Source of the DNA: an uncultured Lachnospiraceae bacterium
GTDB lineage: Bacteria > Bacillota > Clostridia > Lachnospirales > Lachnospiraceae
Direction: 5' to 3'
DNA: 64,000 bases
Assembly (NCBI GenBank): GCA_910585255.1
Contig: CAJUEI010000003.1
Coordinates: 2,782 to 66,781, forward strand
Below are positions 39,935 to 61,680 of this stretch, piece after piece (the first letter of the stretch is position 1; every line of letters begins with the position of its first letter). The notes under the pieces were generated by a model that ran no database searches, was not told the origin of the DNA, and was given only the letters and a program-made list of their open reading frames with translations. The translations under genes were made by a program, and so were the position numbers.

Positions 39935-41359
39935 ATGGCATTTTATAATGAATTAAGTAAGTATGGTGATAGAGCAGCATTGATAGGAGAAGAGGGAACG
40001 ACAATTACTTATCAGGAATTGGAAAATTTGTCAAATGATTTTGGGAAAATAATACCAGAAAGAGAATTGGTATTTGTTCTTTGTAGGAATATACCAGGGT
40101 CAGTGGGTGGTTATTTATCATTTTTGGCTAAAGATATTGTTCCTCTTTTATTAAGTGCAGAAATTAATAAAGATCTTTTAGAGAATTTACTTTCTATTTA
40201 TCAGCCCTCTTATTTATATGTACCAGAACAAATGAGTCAGGAATTTGATAAGTCAGAGTTGTTATATAAGAAATATGGATATTGTTTATTATGTATAGAT
40301 AGTAGAGAAGAGGTAAAATTATATCCTGATTTGGCATTGCTTCTTACTACTTCTGGCTCTACTGGGAGTCCTAAATTAGTACGTCAAAGTTATACGAATA
40401 TTCAAGCGAATGCAGAATCAATTGCTTCTTATCTTCATTTAGATGAAAGAGAACGTCCAATTACAACATTACCTATGAATTATACGTATGGGCTTTCTAT
40501 TATTAATAGTCATATTTTGGTAGGAGCAACGATTTTAATGACAGAACAGACTTTAGTAAATCGGAATTTCTGGAATTTCTTTCGTGAACAGGAAGCAACT
40601 TCATTTGGCGGAGTCCCTTATACTTATGAAATTTTAAAGAAGTTAAAATTTTTCCATATGGAACTTCCAAGTTTAAGAACATTTACACAGGCGGGAGGGA
40701 AATTACCTCCTTCTTTGCATCAGGAATTTGCGGAGTATGCAGAGGAAACAAATAAAAATTTTGTTGTAATGTATGGACAAACAGAAGCAACGGCAAGAAT
40801 GGGATATTTACCTCCAGAGTATGCATTAGAGAAAAAAGGTAGTATGGGGATTGCTATACCAGGTGGAACGCTTTGGTTAAAAGATATAGAAGGAAATGAA
40901 ATTACAGAAGCAGATAAAGTGGGAGAATTGGTATATGAGGGAAAAAATGTAACATTGGGATATGCAGAGTGTAGGGAAGATCTGCAAAAAGGGGATGAGC
41001 GTAATGGAATATTGGAAACAGGAGATATGGCAAAGCGTGATAAAGATGGATTTTTTTATATTGTGGGAAGAAAGAAACGTTTTTTAAAGATTTATGGGAA
41101 TCGTGTAAATTTAGATGAGACAGAGCGAATGATTCAGGCAGAATATTTGGACATGGATTGTGCCTGTGCAGGTATGGATGATAAATTATATGTATTTATT
41201 ACGAATCAATCAGAGGAAAGAAGAGAAGAAGTGCAGCATTTTCTTTCTAATAAGACAGGATTAAATCCAATTGCTTTTTATGTAAAGTCCATATCAGAAA
41301 TTCCAAAAAGCGATGCAGGAAAGACATTATATATAAAGTTGGAGGAGTATTATGATTGA
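39935..41359 (+). CDS. AMP-forming adenylating enzyme (acyl/aminoacyl-carrier-protein or CoA ligase, ANL superfamily)
   Basis: LLTTSGSTGSPKLV (A3), YGQTEA (A5), TGDMAKRDKDGFFYIVGRKKRFLKIYGNRV (A8) core motifs. Confidence 0.85.
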   Translation: MAFYNELSKYGDRAALIGEEGTTITYQELENLSNDFGKIIPERELVFVLCRNIPGSVGGYLSFLAKDIVPLLLSAEINKDLLENLLSIYQPSYLYVPEQMSQEFDKSELLYKKYGYCLLCIDSREEVKLYPDLALLLTTSGSTGSPKLVRQSYTNIQANAESIASYLHLDERERPITTLPMNYTYGLSIINSHILVGATILMTEQTLVNRNFWNFFREQEATSFGGVPYTYEILKKLKFFHMELPSLRTFTQAGGKLPPSLHQEFAEYAEETNKNFVVMYGQTEATARMGYLPPEYALEKKGSMGIAIPGGTLWLKDIEGNEITEADKVGELVYEGKNVTLGYAECREDLQKGDERNGILETGDMAKRDKDGFFYIVGRKKRFLKIYGNRVNLDETERMIQAEYLDMDCACAGMDDKLYVFITNQSEERREEVQHFLSNKTGLNPIAFYVKSISEIPKSDAGKTLYIKLEEYYD

Positions 41360-42431
41360 TTATAAAGAGATCTTAATGATTCCGCCTTATAAATTGGAAA
41401 AAAAAGAGAAACAAGAACAGATGAACCAGCGTATGGTAGAATTAGTTATGCATCATTATCATTCTTGTCCTGCATATAAGAATATTTTGGATGTACTGGG
41501 ATATCGGATAGAAGAAAAATTTGATTATAAACAAATGCCATATTTACCAGTACGTTTATTTAAAGATTTGGAATTAAAAAGTATTTCTTCAGAACAGATA
41601 TTTAAAACAATGACTTCTTCCGGTACAACGGGTCAAGCTGTATCAAAAATATATTTGGATAAAGAAACGGCTTCTAATCAACAAAAGACATTGGTTAAAA
41701 TTGTATCTAGCTTTTTGGGTAGAAATCGTGTGCCAATGTTAATAATGGACTGTCCTTCTGTAATAAAAGATAGAAATAAATTTTCTGCAAGAGGAGCAGG
41801 AATTCTAGGTTTTTCTATTTTCGCATCAGATAGATGGTATGCTTTTACAGACGATATGGAATTAGATTATAGTGGAATAGAAGCATTTTTAGAAAAACAT
41901 AGAGGAGAGAAAATTTTATTATTTGGTTTTACCTTTATGATTTGGCAGTTTTTTTATAAAAGATTGCTAGAAGATAAAAAGAAATTAGATTTGTCTAATG
42001 CAGTTATGATTCATGGAGGTGGATGGAAAAAGTTAATTGCAGAGTCGGTTTCAGCATCTGAATATAAGGAACAATTGCAGAGTGTATGTGGGATTTCTTC
42101 TATTCATGACTACTATGGAATGGTAGAACAGACAGGATGTATTTATATGGAGTGTGAATATGGACATTTACATGCCAGTGTTTTTTCAGATGTAATAACA
42201 AGAAGGGCAAAAGATTTTTCTATTTGTGAATATGGAGAGAAAGGAATTCTTCAGGTAATTTCGATGATACCAGAGTCTTATCCAGGTCATTCTTTATTAA
42301 CAGAAGATGAAGGGATTATTTTAGGAGAAGATGATTGTCCTTGCGGCAGAAAAGGAAAGTATTTTAAGGTAGTAGGAAGAATTAAAAATGCAGAAGTTAG
42401 GGGGTGCAGCGATACATATGAAAAGAGGTGA
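41352..42431 (+). CDS. LuxE-like acyl-protein synthetase
   Basis: MTSSGTTGQ adenylation loop, ~360 aa, immediately upstream of a LuxC-like gene. Overlaps the upstream gene by 8 nt. Confidence 0.65.
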   Translation: MIDYKEILMIPPYKLEKKEKQEQMNQRMVELVMHHYHSCPAYKNILDVLGYRIEEKFDYKQMPYLPVRLFKDLELKSISSEQIFKTMTSSGTTGQAVSKIYLDKETASNQQKTLVKIVSSFLGRNRVPMLIMDCPSVIKDRNKFSARGAGILGFSIFASDRWYAFTDDMELDYSGIEAFLEKHRGEKILLFGFTFMIWQFFYKRLLEDKKKLDLSNAVMIHGGGWKKLIAESVSASEYKEQLQSVCGISSIHDYYGMVEQTGCIYMECEYGHLHASVFSDVITRRAKDFSICEYGEKGILQVISMIPESYPGHSLLTEDEGIILGEDDCPCGRKGKYFKVVGRIKNAEVRGCSDTYEKR

Positions 42432-43602
42432 AGCAGAGTATCTATTTGGAGAAAAGGAGATTCAAGTAATTCCTATGATTCCATTTGAAGATCAGGTATG
42501 TGAATTTTTAGATCGATTATCAAAAGCGTTAAGAGAAGATTTAGAAGCAAAACAATACCCGGATATTATGACATTTGCATTTTGGATTAGAAAAGCAAAT
42601 ATTTTGAAATTAAAAACACTTTATCAAAAAAAAGAAGTACGAGTAGGAAAAGGGCTGATCTTTCATATCGCACCTTCTAATGTGCCGATTAATTTTGCTT
42701 ATACTTTTGTATTTGGTCTACTTTCAGGAAATTCTAATATTGTGAAAGTTTCTTCTAAAAGATTTATACAGACGGATCTAATCTGTAAAATAATGAATCA
42801 GCTTATTTTAGAGGGATTTGATTGGGTAGCTAAGAGAAATGCAATTGTTTTATATAGACAAGAGGAAGTAGAATTAACCAGAGAATTTTCTTATGCATGC
42901 GATGGAAGGGTGATTTGGGGTGGAGATCAGACGATAGCGGAGATAAGAAAAGCACCTTTACAGCCTCGTAGTGTAGAGATAACATTTGCTGATAGATATT
43001 CTTTTGGAATTATCTCAGCAAAGGCGATTTTAGATGCATCCGATAAAGAAAGAGTTATTTTAGCAAAGAATTTTTATAATGATACTTATTTAATGGATCA
43101 AAATGCATGTTCTACGCCGCATCTTATCTGTTGGATGGGAACAGAGGAAGAGGTAGAGGTAGCGAAGGAGTTGTTTTGGAAAGAAGTGTATCAGAAATCG
43201 AAGAGTTATCCATTAGAGGAAATAAAAGCAAGTGAAAAATATACAATATTTTGTGAGATGGCTGCTAATGGAGTATTATCTTCTTGGAAACGATATGATA
43301 ATTTTCTTTATGTTGGTCAATTATTGGAATTGCCAAAGGATATTTGCAGATTACGTGGAAAGTTTGGTTTATTTTATGAATATCATTTAAAAGATTGGAA
43401 AGAATTGTCTGGACATTTAGGAAAGAAAGTACAAACTTGTGCCATATATGGAATTGAGTCATCTGAAGTATCGGAGTGGATTGTAGAAAGTCATAGTATG
43501 GGAGTGGATCGGATTGTTCCATTTGGAAAAACATTGGATATGGGATTAATTTGGGATGGATATGATATAATTTATACATTTTCTCGTTGTATTGTATTAT
43601 AA
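42418..43602 (+). CDS. LuxC-like acyl-CoA/acyl-protein reductase (aldehyde-forming)
   Basis: IFHIAPSNVPINFAYTFVFGLLSGNSNIVKVSSK and NDTYLMDQNACSTPH resemble the LuxC family. I chose the ATG at 42418 behind AGGGGG. Confidence 0.65.
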   Translation: MKRGEAEYLFGEKEIQVIPMIPFEDQVCEFLDRLSKALREDLEAKQYPDIMTFAFWIRKANILKLKTLYQKKEVRVGKGLIFHIAPSNVPINFAYTFVFGLLSGNSNIVKVSSKRFIQTDLICKIMNQLILEGFDWVAKRNAIVLYRQEEVELTREFSYACDGRVIWGGDQTIAEIRKAPLQPRSVEITFADRYSFGIISAKAILDASDKERVILAKNFYNDTYLMDQNACSTPHLICWMGTEEEVEVAKELFWKEVYQKSKSYPLEEIKASEKYTIFCEMAANGVLSSWKRYDNFLYVGQLLELPKDICRLRGKFGLFYEYHLKDWKELSGHLGKKVQTCAIYGIESSEVSEWIVESHSMGVDRIVPFGKTLDMGLIWDGYDIIYTFSRCIVL

Positions 43603-49310: not shown

Positions 49311-50273
49311 GTGAATAAAATATATATTGTTATGTATCACTATGTACGCAATTTAAAAGGAAGTCGTTATCCAGAAATAAAAGGTTTGGATTATGCACTT
49401 TTTAAAAAGCAGATTCAATTTTTTTCTGAGAACTTTCATGTAATAACAATGGAAGATGTGATTCATTATTATACAGAAGGTTATCCGCTTCCACCGAATG
49501 CACTTTTATTAACATTTGATGATGGCTATATTGATAATTATACTTATGTTTGGCCTGTGCTTTTGGAATATAAAATGCAAGGTTCATTTTTTGTTCCTGC
49601 GAAAACATTTTGTGAAAATTGCTTATTGGATGTAAATAAAATTCATTTTATTTTAGCAAGTACTCCTATTGAAGAATTGTGCAGAGAGTTATATGAACAA
49701 TTAGATTATTATCGTAGCAAAGAATGGGATTATCCGTCTAATGAGGAACTTTTCCATAAGTATGCAATAGCAAATAGGTTTGATACAAAAGAAACTATTT
49801 TTTTTAAACGAATTTTACAAGCAGTTTTACCAGAAGAGCTAAGAGGGATTATATCAAGTAGTATATTTAAAAAATATGTAGGGATTTCGGAAGAAGTAAT
49901 GGCACAGGAACTTTATATGAATTATGATCAAATGAAAGTAATAAAAAGACAAGGTGGTTTTTTTGGAATTCATGGATATAATCATTATTGGATGAATCGT
50001 TTAGAAAAGAATGAATTATTAACAGATATTGATTTGGCATTAGATTCAATGAGTGAATTGGTTGATAGAAAGCAGTGGGTAATTAATTATCCATATGGAT
50101 CTTACAGTGAAAAGGTAATAGAATGGATTCAAGGGAAAGGGTGTTTGCTTGGCTTATCTACAGATGTAAAGGTAGCAGATTTGGAAAGAGATAACCAATT
50201 TGTGCTACTGAGATTAGATACAAATGATTTTCCACCTAAAAGTGAAAATTTTAAATCTTATGATATTGGATAA
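49311..50273 (+). CDS. Polysaccharide deacetylase (NodB homology, CE4)
   Basis: LLTFDDGYIDNYTYVWPVL (the DD metal/catalytic motif) and HGYNHYWM. GTG start behind AAAGGA. Confidence 0.75.
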   Translation: MNKIYIVMYHYVRNLKGSRYPEIKGLDYALFKKQIQFFSENFHVITMEDVIHYYTEGYPLPPNALLLTFDDGYIDNYTYVWPVLLEYKMQGSFFVPAKTFCENCLLDVNKIHFILASTPIEELCRELYEQLDYYRSKEWDYPSNEELFHKYAIANRFDTKETIFFKRILQAVLPEELRGIISSSIFKKYVGISEEVMAQELYMNYDQMKVIKRQGGFFGIHGYNHYWMNRLEKNELLTDIDLALDSMSELVDRKQWVINYPYGSYSEKVIEWIQGKGCLLGLSTDVKVADLERDNQFVLLRLDTNDFPPKSENFKSYDIG

Positions 50274-50455: not shown

Positions 50456-50716
50456 TTAAATTTCTATTTTATATGTTTCTTTAAGAATTTCAATTCCTTT
50501 TTCATAGGAACTGAGATCAATAATATCGTCAGTATCCATTGTAATTTCAAAACTGTCTTCTAATTCTGCAATTAAGGACATATGACCGACAGAATCCCAT
50601 TCTGGAATACTCATATACTCTAAGCCAGTTAGTTTATTTTTTTCAATTGCAAATGTTTCCATAAAAGCTGCATCATATTTTTCCCTATTAGTCATAATTA
50701 AGTTCCTCTCTTTCAA
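50456..50716 (-). CDS. Acyl/peptidyl carrier protein (ACP-1)
   Basis: 86 aa, acidic. EWDSVGHMSLIAELE contains the phosphopantetheine serine context. Confidence 0.75.
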   Translation of the reverse strand: MKERNLIMTNREKYDAAFMETFAIEKNKLTGLEYMSIPEWDSVGHMSLIAELEDSFEITMDTDDIIDLSSYEKGIEILKETYKIEI

Positions 50717-50730: not shown

Positions 50731-51771
50731 TTATATTTCGTTAGCAATGGCATTTTCTTGGATTAAGGTATCTTCTTCTACATCAATTAATAGCTTTTTA
50801 CCTATAAGCCATTCAATTTTATCAGGACTTAAACCGGTGCCAGGGCGTTTTAGATCGAGATCGTCTTCTGAAAGTATTGTCCCAGCTTTTAGATTTCTTT
50901 TGCTTACGATACTTCTCCGCATTTTTAACCTTTGTTCTAATTCTTCAGAAGAAACACATCTTTCTTCACTTCCTAAGGCAATTGACACAGAGTGACAATT
51001 TTTTACTAATTGCTTCATTTCTTCTTTTTCTATTGCCATCTGGTTATCCATACCAATTTTAGAACGATCTAAAGTAAAGTGTTTTTCTATTAAGCTTGCT
51101 CCTAAAGCAATAGAGGCGGGAGCTAATTCTATTCCAAGGGAATGATCGGAAAAACCAATTGGATAATTAGGAAAATATTTTTTTAGCCCCAAAATATTTT
51201 TTAGATAAATTTTATCTTTTGTTGTTGGATAAATGGAAGTACAATGTAAAATACAAATATTATAATTATCAGCATCTTCTATTGTTTTAATTGCTGCACG
51301 TATTTCTTCTAAACTACCCATTCCAGTAGATAAAACAATAGGAGCTTTTGTTTTTGCTATATATTTAAGAAAAGGATAATTATTTAAGTCCATAGAAGCT
51401 ATCTTAATATATGGTACATCACAGTATTCTAAAAGAAAATCTACTTCTTTTTCAGAGTATGGAGTGGATGCAAATGCAATTTTTTTCTCTTTACTATATT
51501 TGGCAACTTCTAAAAGTTGTTCATTAGAGAAAGCAAATTTTTTTACAAAACGTTCTGCTATAGGGTTTTCTTTATAATAGCTTTTAGAATAAAGGGTTTT
51601 AGAGGACCAAGATTGAAATTTTACACAATCACAGCCAGCTTGTTTAATTTCATCAATCATCTTTTTAGCTGTTTCTACACTTCCATTGTGACTGGTATTT
51701 ACTTCAGCTACAATATAAGGAGAATAAGAGTTACCAATTTTTCTTTTATCTAGGAATACACATTCTGTCAT
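50731..51771 (-). CDS. NeuB-family PEP-condensing synthase (NeuB/PseI/LegI-like) with a C-terminal SAF domain
   Basis: YIVAEVNTSHNGSVETAKKMIDEIKQAGCDCVKFQSW, ILHCTSIYPT, GFSDHS, EKHFTLDR, then a SAF-like RSIVSKRNLKAGTIL...LKRPGTGL. Confidence 0.85.
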   Translation of the reverse strand: MTECVFLDKRKIGNSYSPYIVAEVNTSHNGSVETAKKMIDEIKQAGCDCVKFQSWSSKTLYSKSYYKENPIAERFVKKFAFSNEQLLEVAKYSKEKKIAFASTPYSEKEVDFLLEYCDVPYIKIASMDLNNYPFLKYIAKTKAPIVLSTGMGSLEEIRAAIKTIEDADNYNICILHCTSIYPTTKDKIYLKNILGLKKYFPNYPIGFSDHSLGIELAPASIALGASLIEKHFTLDRSKIGMDNQMAIEKEEMKQLVKNCHSVSIALGSEERCVSSEELEQRLKMRRSIVSKRNLKAGTILSEDDLDLKRPGTGLSPDKIEWLIGKKLLIDVEEDTLIQENAIANEI

Positions 51772-51788: not shown

Positions 51789-53576
51789 TTATTGATCAAT
51801 GGGTTCTATTATCATTTCTGATAGAAATAGTTCTCTATCTAAAAAAGGAGCCTGATCTTCAAGTGGTCTACGTACAATCTTTTTAGATTGGTTTCTAGCA
51901 TATGAATTACAAATATATTCTTGATTTTCTACCCCTATAATTTCACAAAGTACAGAAGAATCTAATTGCAGAATACTGGATAATTGTTCTTCTAGATTTT
52001 TACTGGTTTCTATTTTGATATAAGTCATATCGAAACATTCAGCGATTTTCTTGAAGTTAGGACAACTAACACCATTATTGGAGTCTGTACCAATTGTTCG
52101 AGTTCTGAAAAGATCTTGTTGTCTTTTTCGTATAATGGAGTATATATTATTATTAATAACAAATATTTTTATAGGAAATTGATGATAACGGATGGTTTCT
52201 AATTCTTGGAGATTCATCATAATAGAACCATCACCAATTACAGCTATTACATTTTTATTGCCAGTTGAAGCAATACCAATTGTTCCAGGAAGTGCAAATC
52301 CCATGGCACCTTGCATAGGAGAATGAATACATCTCATATTTTTTTTAAATGAGATATTAGATGGAAGAATAAGTTCCTCTAGTCCAGCATCGCATAAAAA
52401 TACAGAATTTTCAGGTAAAGTATTAGTAAAACCTTCCGCTAAACGATAAAGATCTACTTTTGATTGATTTTTATATTTATCTTCACATTTTGGAAAGATA
52501 TTTTTCCAATGGAGACATTTTTCTTGCCATTCTATTGATGTAGTTTTTATTTTTTTATCTAATATAGATGTAAGGAAATATTTTATATCTACAATCAGCA
52601 GTTTATCAATTTGAACAGATCTTTTGGAATGTTCTATTTTATCAATATCAATAACAATGATTTTAGCAGCACGTGCAAATTTTTCATATTCTTCGCCAGT
52701 TGTCATAGAAGATAAACGACATCCTAGAATAAGTAATAAATCGGAATTTTGTACAGCAAAATTTCCTGCCCTTGTTCCACATAAACTACCTACAGTTCCA
52801 ATTGATAAAGGATTTTCTAATCCATATAAATCTGTAGCTGTATGTGAATAGGTAACAGGTATTTTAGTTTTTTCTACAAATTTATAAAATAATTCTTTAG
52901 AATTTGAGGTTCTTACTCCACTGCCAATTAATAAAATAGGTCTTTTTGCAGTATTAATTGCTTGGCAGATTTCTTCTATATTTGTATCTAGGTAATTAAA
53001 ATTTTCTTTTTTTTCTTCAGGGATATATCGTTCTAGTTTTTCTGGTTCAATTCTCATATTTTGAATATTAATTGGAATGTCTATCCAAACAGGTCCTTTT
53101 CTTTCTGAATTTGCATAATAAAAAGCTTTATCTAATTCATATGCAATTTGCTCAGCAGAGGTAATCATAGTTGCATATTTTGTAATTGACTTAACAATTG
53201 GAATAATATTTGTTTCTTGTGAACCGTATGTTCGAATAGGTATTTTTGTGTAATTTACAGTTTCATTTAATATATTTTGTCCGGAAATAAAGATACAAGG
53301 TATTCCATCTTGCCAAGCTTCCAATACGCCTGTGATTGTATTCGTAGATGCACAACCTGTAGATACAAGACAAGCACCAATTTTTTCAGTATATTGAGCA
53401 TTAGCGGTTGCAGCAAAGGCGGCAGCCTGTTCATGATGCATAGAAATATTTTTAATTTTTTCAAATTTTGCTACTGCATCTGATAAATACAGTATTCCTC
53501 TTCCTGTAATAGAAAAGATATTTTTTACTCCTTCTTCATAAAGTCTTTCTATGATATAATCGGCTACTCTAATCAT
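51789..53576 (-). CDS. Thiamine-diphosphate-dependent enzyme, acetolactate-synthase-like (second copy in the window)
   Basis: HHEQAAAFAATANAQ and STGCASTNTITG in the N-domain. GDGSIMMNLQELET...INNNIY is the TPP motif. Confidence 0.85.
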   Translation of the reverse strand: MIRVADYIIERLYEEGVKNIFSITGRGILYLSDAVAKFEKIKNISMHHEQAAAFAATANAQYTEKIGACLVSTGCASTNTITGVLEAWQDGIPCIFISGQNILNETVNYTKIPIRTYGSQETNIIPIVKSITKYATMITSAEQIAYELDKAFYYANSERKGPVWIDIPINIQNMRIEPEKLERYIPEEKKENFNYLDTNIEEICQAINTAKRPILLIGSGVRTSNSKELFYKFVEKTKIPVTYSHTATDLYGLENPLSIGTVGSLCGTRAGNFAVQNSDLLLILGCRLSSMTTGEEYEKFARAAKIIVIDIDKIEHSKRSVQIDKLLIVDIKYFLTSILDKKIKTTSIEWQEKCLHWKNIFPKCEDKYKNQSKVDLYRLAEGFTNTLPENSVFLCDAGLEELILPSNISFKKNMRCIHSPMQGAMGFALPGTIGIASTGNKNVIAVIGDGSIMMNLQELETIRYHQFPIKIFVINNNIYSIIRKRQQDLFRTRTIGTDSNNGVSCPNFKKIAECFDMTYIKIETSKNLEEQLSSILQLDSSVLCEIIGVENQEYICNSYARNQSKKIVRRPLEDQAPFLDRELFLSEMIIEPIDQ

Positions 53577-53607: not shown

Positions 53608-54084
53608 TTATTTTTTTGGTTTAAAAGAATTTAAAATATCTGGAATAGCTATTACGAATTCTGCTGAACAAGCTTCTTCATCATTAACAAAACTTTTTAC
53701 ATATCCTTTAGCAATACCTCTTCGGAAGGACAAAAGTTCTGCATAAATATCAAGTTGATCTCCTGGAATAATTTTACGTTTAAATTTTATATTATTGGCA
53801 CTTACAAAACTTGTTTTTTTCCCTTTATATTCATCCATACATAAAAAAGTCATAATAAATGTTTGGGCAAGACATTCTATCTGAATAAAACCTGGAACAT
53901 TGGGATCATCTGCGAAATGTGCAGGAAAATACCATTCATTATAACTAAAATTTTTTATACCATGTGCCGTTTTTCCTGGTTCGATTGCTATTATTTTATC
54001 AATGAATAATAGAGGATATCTGTTTTGTTGGGAATTTTGAATGTCTATTATCCCTAAATTAGTTAGAATTTCATTATTTTTCAT
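53608..54084 (-). CDS. FabZ/FabA-like hotdog-fold dehydratase (FabZ-like 1)
   Basis: NRYPLLFIDKI, FPAHFADDPNVPG (catalytic His) and IECLAQ (catalytic Glu). Confidence 0.75.
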   Translation of the reverse strand: MKNNEILTNLGIIDIQNSQQNRYPLLFIDKIIAIEPGKTAHGIKNFSYNEWYFPAHFADDPNVPGFIQIECLAQTFIMTFLCMDEYKGKKTSFVSANNIKFKRKIIPGDQLDIYAELLSFRRGIAKGYVKSFVNDEEACSAEFVIAIPDILNSFKPKK

Positions 54085-54389: not shown

Positions 54390-54453
54390 GAAAAAAGTAG
54401 TTATTTCCAAGGTTTGAAAGGATTCAAATTATAATTTCAGGAGGAAGATTAAA

Positions 54454-54699
54454 ATGACAAATTATGAAAAATATGTAGAAGCATTTAAAACAGGGCTTGG
54501 CATTGATGGAGATAAGGTAACAAAGGAGTTGACATATCAATCTGTAATGGAATGGGATTCAGTAGGGCATATGGAATTAGTTGCTGAATTGGAAGAAGTA
54601 TTTAACATTTCTATGGATACGGATGATATTGTTGACTTTAATTCATTTGAGGCAGGAATAAAGATCCTTAAAAAATATAATATAAAGATTGAGGAATAA
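54454..54699 (+). CDS. Acyl/peptidyl carrier protein (ACP-2), paralogue of ACP-1
   Basis: 81 aa. EWDSVGHMELVAELEEVF...MDTDDIVDF is closely parallel to the 50456-50716 product. RBS GGAGGAAG. Confidence 0.75.
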   Translation: MTNYEKYVEAFKTGLGIDGDKVTKELTYQSVMEWDSVGHMELVAELEEVFNISMDTDDIVDFNSFEAGIKILKKYNIKIEE

Positions 54700-54705
54700 A
54701 CAGAG

Positions 54706-55446
54706 ATGATTAAAGATAAGTATGCTGTTGTAACAGGAACAAGCAGAGGAATTGGGCGTGCAGTAGCAGAAAAATTAGCACAGTGTGGGGCTGATCTATT
54801 TGTGTGTGCAAGAACCAGAACAGATGAATTTGAAGAGTGGGTAACACAACTTCAGATTCAGACAAATAGAAAAATTATGTCTGTTTATTTTGATTTACAG
54901 GATGAAAATCAGATAAAAGAAGCATTTTTACAGATTAAAAAGGCGTCTGTTCCTATTGATATTTTAGTAAATGTAGCAGGCTGTGTGTATAGTGCAAATT
55001 TTCAAATGACCGGAATAAGTAAAATGAAGGAATTATTTGCAATTAATTATTTTAACCAAATACAGTTTACGCAATATATTTTAAAGCTTATGTTAAAACA
55101 ACATAAAGGAAGTATTGTAAATATTGCATCAAGTGGCGGAATAGATGGAAATCCAGGCAGAACTGCTTATAATGCTACAAAGGCATCCATTATTTCTACT
55201 ACTAGAACAATGGCAAAAGAATTGGGTAAAAATGGAATTCGAGTAAATGCTATTGCTCCAGGATTAATTGATACAGATATGGCAAGAAATTATACTCCCG
55301 ATTCTATTATGAAACTTGAATTAGAAAATACTTGTATGGGACGTATAGGAAAAGCAGAGGAAGTTGCAAATGTGGTAGAATTTCTTGCATCTGATGCAGC
55401 ATCTTATGTAACAGGACAGGTATGGCGTGTGGACGGAGGAATGTAG
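54706..55446 (+). CDS. Short-chain dehydrogenase, 3-oxoacyl-ACP reductase (FabG)-like
   Basis: VVTGTSRGIGRAVA, NVAG, S...YNATK catalytic residues and PGLIDTDM. Confidence 0.85.
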   Translation: MIKDKYAVVTGTSRGIGRAVAEKLAQCGADLFVCARTRTDEFEEWVTQLQIQTNRKIMSVYFDLQDENQIKEAFLQIKKASVPIDILVNVAGCVYSANFQMTGISKMKELFAINYFNQIQFTQYILKLMLKQHKGSIVNIASSGGIDGNPGRTAYNATKASIISTTRTMAKELGKNGIRVNAIAPGLIDTDMARNYTPDSIMKLELENTCMGRIGKAEEVANVVEFLASDAASYVTGQVWRVDGGM

Positions 55447-55448
55447 TT

Positions 55449-56303
55449 TTGGATGAGAAAACGATCAATAAGATAAGTGAATTTGCTTTTCATATGAGAA
55501 AGCATGCTCTAACTATGTCATATGCATCTGGGAATCATGCAGTTCATTTTGGTGGTGGTATGTCTGTAATTGATATTTTGGCAGTTTTATATGCAGAGAT
55601 ATTAAAATTGGATAGGGAGAATCCTGTTTGGGAAGACAGAGATAGATTTATTATGAGTAAAGGTCATGGTGTAATTGGATATTATGCGGCATTAGCAGAA
55701 GTTGGTTATATCCCTTTAGAAGAGCTGAAAAAATTTGAACAAGAGAATTCTTATTTAATGGGTCATCCTGTTTATACTCCTAAATATGGAATCGAATTTA
55801 CAAACGGAAGCCTTGGTATGGGAGTTTCCCTTGGAATAGGAACAGCATTGTCAGCTAAAAAGAAAGGAAAAAACTATAAAACTTATATATTAATCGGTGA
55901 TGGAGAAGCAGATGAAGGTTCCATATGGGAAGCTGCTATGTCTGCAGTTCAGTTTCAGTTAGATAATTTATGTGTGATTATAGATCGGAATCGTCTACAA
56001 CTTGGCGGGGATACAGAAGAAATTATGGCACATGGTGATTTAAGAAAGAAATATGAGATATTTGGATGGAATTCTTATGAAGTGAATGGGCATAATGTGA
56101 AAGAATTGTGTCATGTATTTCATGAAATACCAGTAAATAAAAAACCATCAATTATTATTGCTAATACGATAAAAGGAAAAGGATTTCATTTTTCAGAAAA
56201 TAATAATTCCTGGCATCATGCAGTAATGACAGAATCACAATATGAAGCAGCATTAAAAGAGCTGGAGGATAGCTATTATGGAAATAACAGCAAAAAATGT
56301 TAA
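55449..56303 (+). CDS. Split transketolase, N-terminal (TPP-binding) subunit
   Basis: HFGGGMSVIDILAVLY, RDRFIMSKGHG and GDGEADEGSIWEA. The likely start is TTG 55449, 9 nt after GGAGG; the track ORF begins at 55422. Confidence 0.8.
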   Translation: MDEKTINKISEFAFHMRKHALTMSYASGNHAVHFGGGMSVIDILAVLYAEILKLDRENPVWEDRDRFIMSKGHGVIGYYAALAEVGYIPLEELKKFEQENSYLMGHPVYTPKYGIEFTNGSLGMGVSLGIGTALSAKKKGKNYKTYILIGDGEADEGSIWEAAMSAVQFQLDNLCVIIDRNRLQLGGDTEEIMAHGDLRKKYEIFGWNSYEVNGHNVKELCHVFHEIPVNKKPSIIIANTIKGKGFHFSENNNSWHHAVMTESQYEAALKELEDSYYGNNSKKC

Positions 56304-57243
56304 AAAATGGTCTACGGTAGGAGCACGACCTACATTTGGAATGACTATGGTGGAATTAGCGAAGACAAATCCAAATATGATAGTACTTACTGCAGATGTA
56401 TCTACTTCAGCAGGATTAGAACGTTATAAAAAGATGTTTCCAGAGCAATTTATTGATGTGGGTATTGCAGAACAAAATATGATGGGAATTGCGACAGCTC
56501 TTTCAAAAGAAGGATATTGTGTGGTTACAACAACATTTGCACCATTTCAATCTATGAGGTGTTTAGAGCAGATTCGAGTAAATCAAGGATATATGGGTCT
56601 GCCTGTTATTATGGTTGGACTTTCAAGCGGATTATATCATTGTTATTTAGGAAATACACACTGTTGTTTTGAAGATGCAGCTATTTTACGCTCTATTCCT
56701 AATATTGCAGTTGTGACACCTGCAGATGGTGCTGAGATTGTAAAAACATTTGAATATGCTGTTAATTATCATAAATCAATATATGTTCGTTTGATTGAGG
56801 GAAAAAATCTTCCAATTATATATAAGGAAGACTTTTCATTTTCAATAGGAAAAGCAAATATTTTAAGAGAAGGACAGGATATTGTAATATTGGCAAATGG
56901 TACTATGGTGGCTCAGGCTTTAACAGCAGCAGATATTTTACAAGAAAGGGGTATATCCTGTAAAGTTATTGATTTTCATACGATAAAACCATTAGATACA
57001 GAGTTATTGGATTCTGTTATAGATTATCCATTATTAATTACCATAGAAGAACATAGCGTAATTGGAGGATTAGGTTCCGCTGTAGCAGAGTATATGATAC
57101 AAAAGAGAAGAAAACCAAGGCAGCTTTTCATGGGAATTCAAGATTTTTATCCACATTCTAGTGACTATGAGACCGTGTTAAAGCAGTGTGGATTGACGGC
57201 AAAGCAGATTGCAGAAAAAATAGTAAGCGAGATAGGTGAGTAA
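56278..57243 (+). CDS. Split transketolase, C-terminal (pyrimidine-binding) subunit
   Basis: FIDVGIAEQNMMGIATALS, TFAPF, and the C-terminal domain IDFHTIKPLD. Confidence 0.8.
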   Translation: MEITAKNVKKWSTVGARPTFGMTMVELAKTNPNMIVLTADVSTSAGLERYKKMFPEQFIDVGIAEQNMMGIATALSKEGYCVVTTTFAPFQSMRCLEQIRVNQGYMGLPVIMVGLSSGLYHCYLGNTHCCFEDAAILRSIPNIAVVTPADGAEIVKTFEYAVNYHKSIYVRLIEGKNLPIIYKEDFSFSIGKANILREGQDIVILANGTMVAQALTAADILQERGISCKVIDFHTIKPLDTELLDSVIDYPLLITIEEHSVIGGLGSAVAEYMIQKRRKPRQLFMGIQDFYPHSSDYETVLKQCGLTAKQIAEKIVSEIGE

Positions 57244-57247
57244 AAAT

Positions 57248-58276
57248 ATGGGTTACGTAGATAAAAAAAGAGTGCTTCAAAAACTTCACAATTTTCATAA
57301 GGCTGTAAAAGAAAATGGCGGGAAAATTGGAACAGCACCAAGAATTATTGATTTAAGTTATGATAATGCATGTAATTTTAAATGTCAGCATTGTTTTACA
57401 AAAGCACCAGAAGGAATTAATACATTAAAACATATGCCAATGGAAATGATAACGAAATTAGCGGATGAAGCAGATACCTTAGGATTTTATGAGTTTGATT
57501 TACAGGGAGGAGAATTATTGATTCGTCCTGAACAATTTTTTGATTTGGTAAAAGCAGTAGGAGCAGAAAGATTTTATATTTATTTAACAACGAATGGGTA
57601 TTTTCTAGATCAAAATATGGCACATCGATTAGCTCAGGCAGGAATTGACAGGGTATCTGTCAGCATTGATGGCTTAGATGCAAAAGAACATGATTCTTTT
57701 CGAGGAAAAAGTGGAGCATTTGATAGGGCAATTCATGCATTAAAGTATGTAAAAGAAGAAGGAATGGAACCTTTTATGAATATTACAATAGGTCATTACA
57801 ATGCCTTCTCAAAAGAATTAGAAGAACAACTTGCTTATTCCTATGAAAATGGTTTTAAATCAATTTTAAACGCAGCTGTTCCGGCTGGATGCTGGAAAAA
57901 TAATTATGATATTATGCTGACAGAGGAAGATACAAAACATATTGAACAGTTGAGAAAAAAGTATCCCAATATGATAAGGGATATATGGGATCCTTTTGAT
58001 CGGAAACAAGAAAAAATATTGGGATGTAATGCAGGAAATATTTTATACATTACTCCTTGGGGAGACGTTTTGCCATGTCCATTTATTCATATAAAATTAG
58101 GAAATATTTATGAAATGAGTTTAGAAGAGATTGTAAATTATACATTTTCATTGGATGCGTTTTCTGAATATTCGGATAAATGTTTAGCCGGGGAAGACAA
58201 AGATTTTGTGAAAAAATATATGAGTGGAGATATATCAACTCAAAATCCTGTAAGTGCGGCAGAAATTTTTAGATAA
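57248..58276 (+). CDS. Radical SAM enzyme with a SPASM/twitch-like C-terminal Cys cluster
   Basis: CNFKCQHC (CxxxCxxC) near the N-terminus. The C-terminus has GCNAG...PWGDVLPCPF. I chose the ATG at 57248 behind AGGTGAG. Confidence 0.8.
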   Translation: MGYVDKKRVLQKLHNFHKAVKENGGKIGTAPRIIDLSYDNACNFKCQHCFTKAPEGINTLKHMPMEMITKLADEADTLGFYEFDLQGGELLIRPEQFFDLVKAVGAERFYIYLTTNGYFLDQNMAHRLAQAGIDRVSVSIDGLDAKEHDSFRGKSGAFDRAIHALKYVKEEGMEPFMNITIGHYNAFSKELEEQLAYSYENGFKSILNAAVPAGCWKNNYDIMLTEEDTKHIEQLRKKYPNMIRDIWDPFDRKQEKILGCNAGNILYITPWGDVLPCPFIHIKLGNIYEMSLEEIVNYTFSLDAFSEYSDKCLAGEDKDFVKKYMSGDISTQNPVSAAEIFR

Positions 58277-58291
58277 GTAGGAGGAAATGGT

Positions 58292-58765
58292 ATGGAGGAA
58301 AAGTTGAGTTTGGATATTGTTCAGATTCAGGAATATGAAGCGAATCGTTATCCATATTTATTAATTGATAAAGTAACAGAAATTGTTCCGGGAAAGTATG
58401 CAAAGGGATATAAAAATCTTACATTTAATGAATGGTTTTTTCCCTGTCATTTTGAAGGGTGTCCGAATATGCCAGGGATGCTTCAAATAGAAGCATTATC
58501 TCATGTATTTATTTTATTATTTCTAACATTACCTGGAAATAAAGGAAAAATTACTAATATTCTAGGGGCAAATAATTTAAAATTTTATCAAAGGGTATTA
58601 CCAGGAGATAGATTAGAGATAGAAGCAGAATTGAATTCATGGAAACGTGGAATTGGAATTGGACCTGCACGGGGATATGTAGATGGAAAATTGGTATGTG
58701 AAGCAGAATTTAAAATTTGTATCCCAGAAATTTTACAGCAATATACACCTAAAAGTAATAAATAG
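58292..58765 (+). CDS. FabZ/FabA-like hotdog-fold dehydratase (FabZ-like 2)
   Basis: NRYPYLLIDKV, FPCHFEGCPNMPG and IEALSH. The C-terminus parallels FabZ-like 1. Confidence 0.75.
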   Translation: MEEKLSLDIVQIQEYEANRYPYLLIDKVTEIVPGKYAKGYKNLTFNEWFFPCHFEGCPNMPGMLQIEALSHVFILLFLTLPGNKGKITNILGANNLKFYQRVLPGDRLEIEAELNSWKRGIGIGPARGYVDGKLVCEAEFKICIPEILQQYTPKSNK

Positions 58766-58773
58766 TAAGGGAA

Positions 58774-59934
58774 ATGGTATTGTTATATGAAGTAATGATT
58801 AGAGAGGATGGGAATACGGTGTTAGAATTATCAGAAATAACTTTTTCAATGGATAAAACGCAAAGTTATATTATTTATGGACCAGGTGAAAATGGAAGAA
58901 TGTTAAAGCGGGTGCTAGATATATTAAATCAAAAAGTTTCTTGCTTTATTTGTAGTACTGGACATAAGAAAGTAACTGAAATAGATGGAATTCCAGTATT
59001 TGAATTGTCAGAGTATTTAAATTCTAAAGAAAAGAATTTGGACAAAATCTTAATGACTGTATGTGGGGGGGTAGACTCTATTTTAGAGGGGTTGAAGAGG
59101 CAACTGGAAAATGTGATTTGCCAAATTAATTCATCACAAGATATTTGTAAAGTATATGAATATTTTTATAGAAATTATTTTTTACAAAGAGGGGTTGATT
59201 TGAGCGGAGATTTTATAAAGCTAAAGGAAATGGAATTTATTAATCCGTTTAAAGCAGAACTATCTTATTCATTGGCTTTTTATATGTCGTGTGGGGATAT
59301 TATTCTTCCAACTATATATAAGGATTTATCTTGTAGTTGGGAGGGATCATATGAAGTATCTCCTGTTCTGTTGCAGGAAAATGATATTGTTATAGATTGT
59401 GGAAGCAATATGGGACTTTTTTCAATTATAGCAGCTAATCGATGTGCAAAATCATATGCATTTGAATGTGTGCCATCTACTTATCATTATATCAATCAAA
59501 TTTGTAAAAAATACAATAACATAGAATTGGTAAAGAAAGCGATAGGAGCATTTGTAGGTAAGGTTAGATTTTCTATGGATGAGGATCTTAATTGTAATAA
59601 TCGGATTGTATGGGAGGATGGAGAAATTGGACATAATCCAGTAAAATTTGGTGCTCCTGAAAACTTTCAATTAGTTGATATGATAACAATAGATGAATTT
59701 GTAAAAGAATATAAATTAGATAAAGTAGATTTTATAAAAGCTGATATTGAAGGGGCAGAGCGAGATATGCTTAGAGGGGCACAAGAGACTTTGAGAAAAT
59801 ATTCTCCTAAATTGGCTATATGTGAATATCATATGCTAGATGATCCGGAAGTGCTTGAAAAGATTATATTGGATGCAAATCCAAATTATGTTGTTTTTCA
59901 TAAATATAAAAAATTATATGCTTATGTACCTTAA
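58774..59934 (+). CDS. FkbM-family methyltransferase (second copy) with an N-terminal extension
   Basis: VIDCGSNMGLFS (SAM motif I) and VDFIKADIEGAERDML. Confidence 0.7.
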   Translation: MVLLYEVMIREDGNTVLELSEITFSMDKTQSYIIYGPGENGRMLKRVLDILNQKVSCFICSTGHKKVTEIDGIPVFELSEYLNSKEKNLDKILMTVCGGVDSILEGLKRQLENVICQINSSQDICKVYEYFYRNYFLQRGVDLSGDFIKLKEMEFINPFKAELSYSLAFYMSCGDIILPTIYKDLSCSWEGSYEVSPVLLQENDIVIDCGSNMGLFSIIAANRCAKSYAFECVPSTYHYINQICKKYNNIELVKKAIGAFVGKVRFSMDEDLNCNNRIVWEDGEIGHNPVKFGAPENFQLVDMITIDEFVKEYKLDKVDFIKADIEGAERDMLRGAQETLRKYSPKLAICEYHMLDDPEVLEKIILDANPNYVVFHKYKKLYAYVP

Positions 59935-60009
59935 GATTAGGATAAGCTGTTTTGATTTTGTGGTTGTATAAAAAGTTTATAAAAATTGGTATATTAAAGG
60001 AAATTATAA

Positions 60010-60953
60010 TGATGAAAGAAATTCAAGATAAAATTAAGAGAATTTGTTCTATGCTTCAAATTGATATTCCTATTTTACAAGGGGCAATGGCTTATATTGC
60101 TAATTATAAATTGGCGGCAGCAGTTTCTGAATATGGTGGATTAGGAATTCTTGCAGCAGGTGGATTGAAATCAGAGCAGCTAGAATATGAAATTAATGAA
60201 TTAAAGAAGTGTACTAAAAAAAGTTATGCAGTTAATATTGCATTAAAAAGTGATAATGTAGAAGAGATTATTTGTATTTTAAAAGATCAGAAAGTGCCTA
60301 TTGTTGTTACAGGAGCGGGAAATCCTGAAAAATATATTTCTGAATTAAAGGGATATGGAGCGAAAGTGATTCCTGTAGTTGCTTCTGTAGCATTGGCAAA
60401 AAGAATGGCTAGATATGGTGCGGACGCAGTAATAGCTGAAGGAAGTGAATCAGGTGGTCATATTGGAAATACAAATACTATGTGTTTAATACCGCAAGTT
60501 GTAGATGCAGTAGATATTCCTGTTATAGCAGCTGGTGGAATCGCTGATGGGCGTGGAGCAGCTGCTTCTTTTATTCTTGGAGCTTGTGCCGTTCAGATGG
60601 GAACACGGTTTCTTGTATCAAGTGAAAGTCCAGCTCATAAAAATTACAAGGAATTACTTTTAAGGGCAAAAGATATTTCAACTGTTGTATTAAATACTAC
60701 ACAAAATGATCAGGATAATATTAGGGCAGTAAAGAGTTTATTGACGGGACAATATTTAGAGGCAGAATTTCGTGGTAGGGAAAATCCAGGATGGATGTTA
60801 AAAGATGCTTTAAAAAAAGCAGCTAAGAATGGAGACAGCAGTCAAGGTCTTTTTATGGCAGGACAATGTGCGGGTTTGATAAAAGAGGAAATGTCAGTTG
60901 AAGAAATTTTAAAACAAGTATGGGGAGATGTTTGTAAATATTTAGAATTATAA
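60010..60953 (+). CDS. FMN-dependent enoyl-ACP reductase II (FabK) / nitronate monooxygenase family protein
   Basis: PILQGAMAYIANYKLAAAVSEYGGLGILAAG, DAVIAEGSESGGHIG and IAAGGIADGRG. I chose the ATG at 60010. Confidence 0.75.
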
Positions 60954-60997
60954 GTGTTTGATTAATAGATAAAAAATAGTTTAAGTTGGGAGAAAAG

Positions 60998-61435
60998 ATG
61001 GAGGAGATAAAATTAGATATAGAGGGAATTAAAAAATATATAAAAATTAGATATCCTGTTTTAATGCTAGATGGAGCAACAGTAATTCCTGGTGTTAGTG
61101 CAGAAGGATTTAAAATATTAGATGGAAAAGAGGAATTTTGGAAAGGACATTATCCAGAATATCCTATTATGCCTGGAACTTATCAATTAGAAGCATTGGC
61201 ACAGCTTTTTTCATTGAGTTTTTTGGTTTTAAATGATTATAGTGAGATAATTCCTAAATTGGTTGGGTTTGAGAAAGTACGATTTTATAAAGAAGTAAAA
61301 CCAGGAGAAAAAAATCATAGCTTAATAATGTCAGCAAAATTACTTTCCTTTAAGCATAATGTTGCAAAAGGAGAAGCAAAAGGAATGGTTAATGGAGAGA
61401 TTGTATGTAGTGCAGAAATTAAGACCTTTTTATAG
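60998..61435 (+). CDS. FabZ/FabA-like hotdog-fold dehydratase (FabZ-like 3, most divergent)
   Basis: IRYPVLMLD, GHYPEYPIMPG and LEALAQ. I chose the ATG at 60998 behind GGGAGAAAAG. Confidence 0.65.
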   Translation: MEEIKLDIEGIKKYIKIRYPVLMLDGATVIPGVSAEGFKILDGKEEFWKGHYPEYPIMPGTYQLEALAQLFSLSFLVLNDYSEIIPKLVGFEKVRFYKEVKPGEKNHSLIMSAKLLSFKHNVAKGEAKGMVNGEIVCSAEIKTFL

Positions 61436-61670: not shown

Positions 61671-61680
61671 GAAAATGTAT

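Follow-up and report, generated by a model that had tools for sequence, protein, structure and literature searches.

The question raised by the locus described here is how an acyl chain could be built on a carrier protein when no enzyme of the usual kind is at hand to extend it. The locus lies in a 64,000-nucleotide stretch of contig CAJUEI010000003.1 from an uncultured Lachnospiraceae bacterium (hereafter the window), where nine genes on the plus strand, at positions 54454-61435, encode an acyl carrier protein (ACP) together with enzymes of the FabG, FabZ and FabK families, a split transketolase, a radical SAM enzyme and an FkbM-family methyltransferase. We propose that these nine genes are half of a modular, ketosynthase-independent carrier-protein pathway producing a short, oxygenated and optionally methylated acyl chain for an amine of the flagellin glycan, a reading in which we place about even odds. 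Its general statement, that a short side chain for a glycan amine is built while tethered to an ACP and without a ketosynthase, is very probable, and the specific route through an aldehyde and the transketolase is put forward tentatively.

An earlier note on this DNA had recognised no ketosynthase, malonyl transacylase or phosphopantetheinyl transferase in the window, and this is borne out. A Pfam search of all sizeable open reading frames (ORFs) of the window detected no ketosynthase, malonyl transacylase, phosphopantetheinyl transferase, lipoyl or E2 (Biotin_lipoyl, 2-oxoacid_dh), Acyl_transf_1 or thiolase-fold domain, and tblastn of the window with E. coli FabH, FabD and FabF and with a FabH-like protein of Fretibacterium gave a best E-value of 0.7 (2.9 or worse for FabD). 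Beyond the window, a condensing enzyme was not found in 75 of 82 related loci (44 with the split transketolase, or TK-type, and 38 with an acetolactate synthase (ALS)-like enzyme, or ALS-type, both described below). The absence is thus the rule but not absolute, as FabH-like genes accompany the cassettes at 7 of the 82 loci, two of them among the 44 of TK-type, and we therefore regard condensing enzymes as optional additions to a common chassis. At the two TK-type loci (L010, L031) a lone FabH-like gene stands beside the cassette; at five metagenome loci (L097, L100, L114, L119 and L130) a trio of FabH-like, FabG-like and FabH-like genes lies upstream of cassettes of the other type.

All nine ORFs of the operon are present on the plus strand, separated by 6-15 nt or overlapping by about 25 nt, and every family assignment made in the earlier note was confirmed. 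Three starts are shifted in public gene calls, namely those of the radical SAM enzyme (57248), of FabK (60009) and of the last FabZ (60998). When read from its GTG codon, the radical SAM protein had no exact match in a sequence lookup, the public start being 57248. The first gene encodes the carrier protein of the TK-type cassette, ACP-2 (54454..54699, 81 aa; PP-binding E 1.9e-4 and ACP subfamily matches), with its phosphopantetheine Ser36 in the motif WDSVGHM, of which WDSxxHM is kept in 68 orthologues. It is followed by a FabG-like NADPH ketoreductase of the short-chain dehydrogenase/reductase (SDR) family (54706..55446; adh_short_C2 3.3e-60; TIGR01830 1.2e-62, under the equivalog cut-off) with a conserved Ser-Tyr-Lys triad, by the N-terminal, thiamine pyrophosphate (TPP)-binding subunit of the transketolase (TK-N, 55422..56303; Transketolase_N 9.2e-45), by its Pyr/C-terminal subunit (TK-C, 56278..57243; Transket_pyr 2.1e-30, Transketolase_C 4.2e-30) and by the radical SAM enzyme of SPASM/twitch type (57248..58276; Radical SAM 2.8e-23, SPASM 5e-7). 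The next gene encodes FabZ-2, a 3-hydroxyacyl-ACP dehydratase (58292..58765; FabA domain 6.2e-23; NF000582 118 bits against a cut-off of 113). The last three genes encode the second FkbM-family methyltransferase of the window (FkbM-2, 58774..59934; Methyltransf_21 3.6e-16), a FabK-like enoyl-ACP reductase dependent on flavin mononucleotide (60009..60953; TIGR03151 1.4e-110) and a second dehydratase, FabZ-3 (60998..61435; FabA domain 4.2e-13). A set of ketoreductase, dehydratase and enoyl reductase is therefore present with an ACP, in which FabZ-2 alone passes its equivalog cut-off, FabG and FabK scoring below theirs. The catalytic His and Glu, which the note had seen in all three FabZ-like proteins of the window, are indeed there and are also kept in 74 orthologues.

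To place the operon among other genomes, orthologues of its radical SAM protein (47-75% identity) were examined in long contigs and by scanning a single genome for each species; neighbouring ORFs were called, classified against the window proteins and then all clustered. More than 870 homologues of the protein were found; a tblastn search of plasmids gave no match. The survey revealed a recurring cassette at 44 non-redundant TK-type loci, many of which end at contig borders. The radical SAM gene, which is the signature of this cassette type, is present at 42 of the 44, with TK-N at 40, TK-C and FabG at 38 each, FabZ at 37, ACP at 35, a LuxE-like protein at 33, and an AMP-binding ligase (AMP-ligase) and a LuxC-like reductase at 31 each. 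Next come NeuB and a sugar SDR (16 each), a DegT aminotransferase (13) and a CMP-transferase (10), and this fall from 31 to 16 sets the core apart from its neighbours. FabK with FabZ-3 occurs at 3 loci and FkbM-2 at 2. The conserved core thus comprises nine genes (ACP, FabG-like SDR, TK-N, TK-C, SPASM/twitch radical SAM, FabZ, AMP-ligase, LuxE and LuxC) that nearly always form one block, for example in the order AMP-ligase, LuxE, LuxC, FabZ, radical SAM, FabG, TK-N, TK-C, ACP. In the window the core is split, with AMP-ligase, LuxE and LuxC at 39935-43602, and the nine adjacent genes that the note had treated as a unit do not coincide with the conserved one, which adds these three and excludes FkbM, FabK and FabZ-3. 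FkbM-2 is a lineage-specific add-on, and FabK, paired with FabZ-3, is shared only with an Acetivibrio locus (L012, where FabK likewise precedes FabZ-3) and close relatives. FabG is a constant companion of the transketolase and radical SAM genes, and 36 of the 41 FabZ proteins at TK-type loci best match FabZ-2.

The hosts of the core span Bacillota, Synergistota, Elusimicrobia and Proteobacteria and include Lachnospiraceae, Acetivibrio and other Clostridia, Fretibacterium, Elusimicrobia, a deltaproteobacterium, Rhodospirillales, Marinagarivorans, Litoricola and, most commonly, Pelagibacteraceae (SAR11). The core usually lies within nonulosonic-acid clusters with neighbours of legionaminic/pseudaminic acid (Leg/Pse) type, such as PseG (TIGR03590, 1.6e-51), DegT, a NeuC-like Epimerase_2, a CBS-NTP-transferase, a PglD-like transferase and a CMP-transferase; where the host is flagellated, flagellin and Maf genes lie close by as well. 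To our knowledge, SAR11 bacteria have no flagella. The abundance of the cassette in Pelagibacteraceae therefore does not agree with a flagellin-specific role and points to a general surface-glycan module that is here used for flagellin. In aerobes (L009, L029, L028, L041 and other SAR11 or alphaproteobacterial loci), TK-type cassettes occur together with genes for Antibiotic_NAT-like acetyltransferases (10 loci) and for PhyH or TauD dioxygenases, which may serve there as off-loading and hydroxylating enzymes.

Among close relatives, an identical FabG occurs in 134 blocks of public assemblies (Lachnospiraceae metagenome-assembled genomes and gut metagenomes), in which the nine genes of the operon are found in two contexts, either as in the window or with the divergent operon swapped for another. 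Loci L001, L003 and L004 carry a near-identical nine-gene operon (97-100% protein identity) that continues directly into a 346-aa GNAT protein, AMP-ligase, LuxE and LuxC, together with a different divergent operon (tandem GNAT, SDR, ACP, AMP-ligase, a 284-aa protein, LuxE and LuxC) and, close to it, genes for an iron alcohol dehydrogenase and Ldh/Mdh-like proteins. These differences from window positions 50456-54084 indicate that the island is reshuffled module by module.

The transketolase is the core enzyme whose residues are most telling for the question of chain extension. The best solved relative of both subunits is the split transketolase of Carboxydothermus hydrogenoformans (6YAK, 1.6e-62 for TK-N; 6YAJ, 2.3e-59 for TK-C), with which they share the split architecture and the cofactor residues. 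In the numbering of E. coli TktA, and with the E. coli, C. hydrogenoformans and human enzymes as controls, the catalytic residues H26, H66, H100, H261, H473 and E411 and the TPP/Mg2+ motif are all kept, and within TK-N none of H26, H66, H100, D155, N185 and H261 is changed in more than one of 41 orthologues. In contrast, the canonical pocket for sugar-phosphate acceptors (R358, S385, H461, R520 and D469) is not intact. R358 is kept in all cassette orthologues and S385 in nearly all, but H461 is replaced by A, S or G and D469 by L in all 43 distinct orthologues, and R520 by G, S or T (seldom A or V) in all except L022. The window enzyme has H461S, D469L and R520G, whereas the controls keep all three residues. 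In transketolases, D469 senses the acceptor's 2-hydroxyl group, while H461 and R520 are ligands of the acceptor phosphate, and engineered D469 variants accept aliphatic aldehydes. The pattern thus suggests that the cofactor and donor side of the enzyme is intact and its acceptor side new.

The core also includes enzymes that could supply such an acceptor. The adenylating enzyme noticed earlier at position 39935 is confirmed as an AMP-ligase (39935..41359, plus strand; AMP-binding 1.7e-40), in which the core adenylation motifs are present and a Lys close to the C-terminus is conserved. Among solved structures it is nearest to MenE (o-succinylbenzoate-), oxalate-CoA, 4-hydroxybutyrate-CoA and malonyl-CoA ligases, with weak matches to the 2-oxoglutaryl-ACP ligase AmcH, and it is syntenic in 31 of the 44 TK-type and 27 of the 38 ALS-type loci. 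Judging from its sequence relatives, its probable role is to charge the ACP with a short (di)carboxylic acid. It is followed on the same strand by a LuxE-like acyl-protein synthetase (41352..42431; LuxE 2.1e-51), whose Cys352, eight residues before the C-terminus, is conserved in 100% of 36 sequences, and by a LuxC-like acyl reductase (42388..43602; LuxC 1.1e-27), whose catalytic Cys241 is conserved in 100% of 35. The lux enzymes are an established relay from acid through acyl-enzyme to aldehyde, and these invariant cysteines fit it.

The same chassis is found with a second carbon-carbon bond-forming module, encoded in the window by the divergent operon on the minus strand. Profile matches confirm the four genes reported there, which encode FabZ-1, the dehydratase of this cassette (53608..54084; FabA domain 5.4e-19), a three-domain ALS-like TPP enzyme (51789..53576; Pfam; TIGR00118 1.2e-99, far under the cut-off) for carbon-carbon bond formation or decarboxylation, a NeuB-family enzyme that condenses phosphoenolpyruvate with an aldehyde (50731..51771; NeuB 1.8e-74) and ACP-1 (50456..50695, 79 aa in public assemblies; weak ACP match and gene call). 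Orthologues of the ALS-like protein at 60-65% identity occur in many phyla. A metagenome scan yielded 38 ALS-type loci, defined by an ALS-like protein at least 46% identical to that of the window, with ALS at 37, NeuB at 33, FabZ at 32, ACP at 29, AMP-ligase at 27, LuxE at 24 and LuxC at 23; a FabZ-1-type gene immediately precedes the ALS-like gene at 26, and NeuB follows it at 33. In Lysinibacillus sp. A4 and Paenibacillus motobuensis, a block of tandem GNAT, FabZ, ALS-like, NeuB, ACP, AMP-ligase, LuxE, LuxC and deacetylase genes adjoins flagellin, Maf and a separate complete NeuB/NeuC/NeuA set. A hybrid locus (L111) has ALS-like, NeuB, FabG, ACP, TK-N, TK-C, AMP-ligase, LuxE and LuxC in a single block, and the window has both modules with a single set of AMP-ligase, LuxE, LuxC and tandem GNAT. 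The divergent operon is thus the carbon-carbon module of a second cassette type that shares the chassis of the TK-type, this chassis (ACP, AMP-ligase, LuxE, LuxC and FabZ) being joined either to the split transketolase, FabG and the SPASM/twitch radical SAM enzyme or to the ALS-like enzyme and NeuB.

The relation between the two cassettes also bears on the paralogues of the window. The pairs noted earlier are real, with 57.5% identity between ACP-1 and ACP-2 (E 3e-28) and 49% between FabZ-1 and FabZ-2 (3e-55); FabZ-3 is 36-39% identical to either FabZ, and the two FkbM methyltransferases (at 37494 and 58774) share 30% identity across their catalytic half. The suggestion that they arose by duplication and diversification of one local cassette did not hold, however, as FabZ-1 is of the type found in ALS/NeuB cassettes and FabZ-2 of the type found in TK cassettes. 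The window paralogues are therefore old lineages brought together rather than products of local duplication. Both FkbM proteins have an N-terminal extension of about 200 aa without a family match (37494-38180 and 58774-59373), and at the related locus L011 a 'C2185-like_N' domain is annotated on FkbM proteins.

The following pathway would account for this gene content. Malonate, malate, oxaloacetate or another small (di)carboxylic acid would be attached to the ACP by the AMP-ligase, and the remaining carboxylate would be adenylated by LuxE and reduced to an aldehyde by LuxC; two carboxylates are assumed because two adenylating enzymes are present. The transketolase would then add a C2 ketol unit, taken from a ketose or hydroxypyruvate, to this aldehyde, in place of a ketosynthase. 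The aldehyde acceptor is suggested because the pocket has lost the Asp that reads the acceptor 2-hydroxyl and two of four phosphate ligands. As the chassis is invariant and the variable modules are all carbon-carbon bond-forming enzymes that use aldehydes, the LuxC aldehyde may be the shared electrophile. FabG, the radical SAM enzyme and FabZ would process the new carbinol or ketone, joined here by FabK, FabZ-3 and the FkbM O-methyltransferase. AprD4 and AprD3, a pair of radical SAM enzyme and SDR, deoxygenate a diol, and the corresponding pair of the cassette could do likewise. As a speculation, 3-oxopropanoyl-ACP (from malonate) and any nucleophile would give a 3-hydroxyacyl-ACP, which would explain the presence of FabZ in the chassis. 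The earlier view that the TPP enzymes, and perhaps NeuB, form the carbon-carbon bonds agrees with this pathway. That the LuxE/LuxC aldehyde is extended by the transketolase, or in the sister cassette by the ALS-like enzyme and NeuB, so that a chain grows on an ACP independently of a ketosynthase, is nonetheless a claim we advance with more doubt than belief.

For the last steps, a polysaccharide deacetylase-family protein (49311..50273, plus strand; Polysacc_deac_1 1.1e-16) would free the sugar amine, a tandem GNAT would move the finished acyl group from the ACP to it in place of the N-acetyl group, and Maf would place the sugar on flagellin. Genes of this deacetylase family adjoin cassettes at L001, L002, L007, L012, L044, L094, L095 and L102. 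The tandem-GNAT protein (38855..39895, plus strand, 346 aa) has no Pfam or NCBIfam match and gave a chance match only in a sequence-profile search of the PDB, and its fold was recognised from an AlphaFold2 model (pLDDT 92) by Foldseek, which returned the GNAT protein 2ozg (4.9e-11), N-myristoyltransferases, Eis2 and MAB_4324 with probability 1.00, E-values of 5e-11 to 1e-9 and TM-scores of about 0.45-0.55. Such genes lie beside cassettes of both types (L001, L007, L012, L042, L044, L094-L096, L102, L105 and L113), and the modelled fold makes the protein a candidate N-acyltransferase off-loading the ACP-bound acyl group. An acyltransferase among the ORFs of the window, which the earlier note had said would count against its reading, is therefore present by fold, but it is of the off-loading type and not a malonyl transacylase. 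The receiving sugar is most likely of nonulosonic-acid type.

Several points weigh against this proposal. Which acid starts the chain, which aldehyde is formed and whether that aldehyde is bound to the ACP are points of inference. The retention of R358 and S385 is compatible with a phosphorylated or carboxylated substrate of the transketolase, and the cassette NeuB, which retains every normal sialic-acid synthase residue including R314, could be no more than a sugar synthase. A CNxxCxxC motif, three conserved C-terminal Cys (seven in the SPASM motif) and an invariant His are present in the radical SAM enzyme, and a fold search with its AlphaFold2 model (pLDDT 90.7) returned generic SPASM/twitch neighbours only (SkfB, SuiB, CteB, BlsE, MoaA and anSME) and no assignable reaction. 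The window has no CMP-transferase gene (no CTP_transf_3 domain) and, besides NeuB, none of the other nonulosonic-acid genes. A housekeeping phosphopantetheinyl transferase, and any fatty-acid synthesis enzymes acting in trans, would be encoded outside the window, and the FabH-like genes at 7 of the 82 loci indicate that the chassis can also work alongside condensing enzymes.

The alternative that survives best is that the transketolase, NeuB and the ALS-like enzyme act on sugars, making a higher-carbon sugar, a branched YerE-like sugar or a second nonulosonic acid, with the ACP set making a simple acyl group of hydroxybutanoyl or tetronate-like kind. We consider this improbable. In its favour, the cassette NeuB keeps the residues K53, Q55, K129, Y186, H215, H236, D247 and R314 of the Neisseria meningitidis enzyme, i.e. 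all those of a genuine sialic-acid synthase, and shows three group-specific changes (N29S, F112Y and S251A). It scores under the equivalog cut-offs of both NeuB (319.6 against 399.65) and PseI (261.8 against 340.25), and its specificity-determining residues, compared with N. meningitidis NeuB, are compatible with either substrate class. As it looks like a normal sugar synthase, our first idea, that NeuB and an oxidative ALS-like decarboxylase give a 3-hydroxyacyl-ACP directly, is kept only as a sub-variant. The embedding of cassettes in Leg/Pse clusters and the Aeromonas five-gene set (discussed below), which functions without a carbon-carbon module, also speak for an action on sugars, as do the pairs of ALS-like and SDR genes found in ordinary polysaccharide clusters. 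One of these is in the window, where a second ALS-like TPP enzyme (5896-8842), 35% identical to the one at 51789 and followed by an SDR gene, sits in a cell-wall polysaccharide cluster (GT2, GT87-like, Bac_transf and LytR); in metagenomes, ALS-like proteins at 35-42% identity regularly precede such an SDR. Presumably this pair may be of the YerE/YerF kind that makes branched sugars. The cassette ALS-like enzymes are distinct from these, however, being at least 46% identical to that of the window and always flanked by FabZ and NeuB and never by the SDR. Moreover, Lysinibacillus and Paenibacillus have their separate NeuC/NeuB/NeuA beside the cassette NeuB, the transketolase no longer has the residues for recognising a sugar-phosphate acceptor, and its genes, like those of FabG and the radical SAM enzyme, are interspersed among those of ACP and FabZ in the same operon.

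Less probable still is a specialised pathway of fatty-acid type in which the housekeeping ketosynthase and malonyl-ACP are recruited in trans to make a medium or long lipid chain, and hence a 'liposugar'. FabG, FabZ and FabK are the canonical reductive trio, and FabH-like genes do stand beside seven cassettes. A reading of this kind has also been given in the literature, where flagellin islands of Aeromonas group II and enterobacteria were reported to carry genes for an ACP, a 3-oxoacyl-ACP reductase, an AMP-ligase, LuxE and LuxC between pse genes and near flagellin and Maf, and this five-gene set was interpreted as serving fatty-acid synthesis, perhaps of a liposugar (PMC7874193; PMC4875605). 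The window has the same five families near flagellin and Maf genes, and the alternative divergent operon of L001, L003 and L004 is a set of the Aeromonas/enterobacterial kind. Those sets are, however, without transketolase, radical SAM and (mostly) FabZ genes. The window for its part lacks the pseBC/pseHFGI flanks, having the NeuB-family gene only and no DegT, PseG, PseH or CMP-transferase; such pse-type embedding is seen at related loci such as L009. Against lipid synthesis, the 75 loci without a condensing enzyme, from many phyla, always have a TPP carboligase or NeuB, and FabK is present at only 3 of the 44 TK-type loci, which puts a full reductive cycle outside the core. Two adenylating enzymes, an aldehyde-making reductase, a transketolase and a radical SAM enzyme would also be left unexplained, and even the streamlined SAR11 genomes retain all nine core genes.

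An equally low likelihood is given to a pathway resembling those of quinocarcin and naphthyridinomycin, in which the transketolase would pass a ketose-derived C2 unit to the ACP as glycolyl-ACP (or acetyl-ACP, in the manner of a phosphoketolase) for a substituent of N-glycolyl type, the other genes being unrelated tailoring functions. The glycolyl-ACP system of quinocarcin and naphthyridinomycin reportedly consists of a two-component transketolase, a lipoyl E2-like protein and an ACP, as described by Peng and colleagues in 2012. The earlier note had named it as a precedent, and the pairing of transketolase and ACP does stand: in both cases a two-component transketolase is encoded with an ACP, and carrier-linked C2 chemistry would proceed without a ketosynthase. 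Here the transketolase genes lie close to that of the ACP, and the TPP and donor-side residues are intact. Bacterial nonulosonic acids with N-glycolyl and N-glyceroyl groups also exist. The other part of the precedent fails, as neither the lipoyl E2-like partner nor another oxidant of dihydroxyethyl-TPP was found in the window or the conserved core and its neighbours, and there is no non-ribosomal peptide synthetase here, the partners being LuxE/LuxC, FabZ and radical SAM, whose strict company would remain unexplained. The changes in the acceptor and phosphate pocket suit a new aldehyde acceptor better than a thiol.

The claim that no described pathway has the combination seen here is upheld by a full-text literature search, which found no paper linking transketolase, ACP and flagellin or pseudaminic-acid modification. 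In Vibrio cholerae, RfbN, a protein of LuxE/LuxC-like kind, carries out a carboxylate reduction, and RfbM belongs to the iron alcohol dehydrogenases. The tetronate pathway of V. cholerae O1 to which they belong (rfbKLMNO) is the nearest described logic, and it was not among the precedents of the earlier note. According to the passage in PMC12208996 that cites Morona 1995 (Gene 166:19), RfbK (ACP) and RfbL (AMP-ligase for 2,4-dihydroxybutanoate) make the 3-deoxy-L-glycero-tetronyl (2,4-dihydroxybutanoyl) N-acyl group of O-antigen perosamine. Both pathways have a dedicated ACP and AMP-ligase (compared by family only) and no ketosynthase, and both have a carboxylate reductase of LuxE/LuxC-like kind, taking RfbN for what it is held to be. 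Unlike the V. cholerae locus, the window has no iron alcohol dehydrogenase gene; one is present in the variant island of L001, L003 and L004, and in L001 it and the Ldh/Mdh-like genes lie beside a second set of ligase, ACP, LuxE and LuxC, recalling the V. cholerae pathway. The latter is itself a proposal made from sequence, and it is without transketolase, radical SAM, FabZ, FabK, ALS-like enzyme and NeuB, its aldehyde being reduced and never extended.

Further tethered side-chain pathways free of a ketosynthase are those of the 4-amino-2-hydroxybutyrate (AHBA) group of butirosin (BtrI/J/K/O/H), of the di-O-methylglyceroyl group of Campylobacter flagellin and of cispentacin (AmcB/AmcH). As in the pathway proposed here, a small acid is held on a stand-alone ACP, tailored while tethered and moved to an amine. 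We know of no transketolase, LuxE/LuxC or NeuB in any of the three. Window proteins gave weak matches to AmcB, AmcE and AmcH, with all scores far under the family cut-offs. The Shewanella sfm genes named in the earlier note form another set: sfmABCDE is not a LuxE/LuxC set and comprises PseI-like, FabG-like, methyltransferase and ATP-grasp genes (PMC3765264).

The weakest alternative, that the cluster is a capsule or lipid A cassette unrelated to flagellin, is rejected for the window, where flagellins, Maf, FliD, FliS and FlgN are encoded alongside; the flagellin-glycan context given in the earlier note is right. The right half of the window (about 28-64 kb) is a flagellin glycosylation island, with a G+C content of 0.26-0.33 against 0.40-0.46 upstream, the drop being at about 28000, where the flagellar and glycosylation region starts. 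GC skew is strongly positive (0.25-0.44) over most of the window, drops to about 0.07 between 12 and 16 kb and is close to zero at 50-54 kb, the site of the divergent operon. The genes of the island are, in order, those of FlaG, FliD, FliS and FlgN, of two flagellins, of the Maf/PseD-like transferase and of FkbM-1; then come those of the 346-aa protein, of AMP-ligase, LuxE and LuxC, of glycosyltransferases, of two sugar-nucleotide SDRs and of RmlC, followed by that of the polysaccharide-deacetylase-family protein, the divergent operon on the minus strand and the nine-gene operon on the plus strand. The glycosylation context is assigned because of the flagellin genes (30703-33732 and 33953-35161, both with Flagellin_N and Flagellin_C domains) and the Maf/PseD-like flagellin glycosyltransferase (35561..37420, plus strand; MptE-like 1.5e-40, PseD domain 1.7e-25). 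The first flagellin is unusually long (1009 aa), with normal terminal domains and a very large central region, its neighbour being of 402 aa. Promoter and terminator scans of positions 53900-62300 gave nothing above shuffled sequences. An AAA-ATPase/PD-(D/E)XK gene (62169-63764) closes the island, and in L002 an integrase gene lies just past the position corresponding to the window end.

The tailoring genes of the island also carry signs of variation between strains. There are only three G7 runs in the 64 kb, at 37942-37948 (FkbM-1), 47360-47366 (RmlC) and 59065-59071 (FkbM-2), all inside tailoring genes of the island, of which shuffled versions contain 0.28 such runs on average. Two of the three tracts vary by one G between otherwise near-identical assemblies: in L006, RmlC is split and its tract is G8, and in L001, L003 and L004 a one-base deletion placed at the FkbM-2 tract leaves that gene frameshifted or split. 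From the letters of these assemblies, slipped-strand phase variation seems to act on glycan tailoring, and the tracts would switch the tailoring genes on and off. The swapping of modules between near-identical strains, together with these poly-G switches, suggests antigenic or phage-receptor variation.

If the proposal is true, the cassette would represent a third logic of chain building on carrier proteins, in which an aldehyde and a TPP carboligase take the place of the Claisen condensation, and the D469L-type pocket of this natural transketolase resembles that of the engineered variants that accept aliphatic aldehydes. It would also explain the 'fatty-acid genes' long noted in the flagellin glycosylation islands of Aeromonas and enterobacteria. 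The flagellins of gut Lachnospiraceae are immunologically relevant, and with the cassette present both in these bacteria and in surface-glycan loci of SAR11, which are among the most abundant bacteria on Earth, such a glycan substituent may be very common. The pathway would then span bacteria from gut Lachnospiraceae to SAR11 and diversify the side chains of their surface glycans through a previously unrecognised form of chain growth on an ACP.

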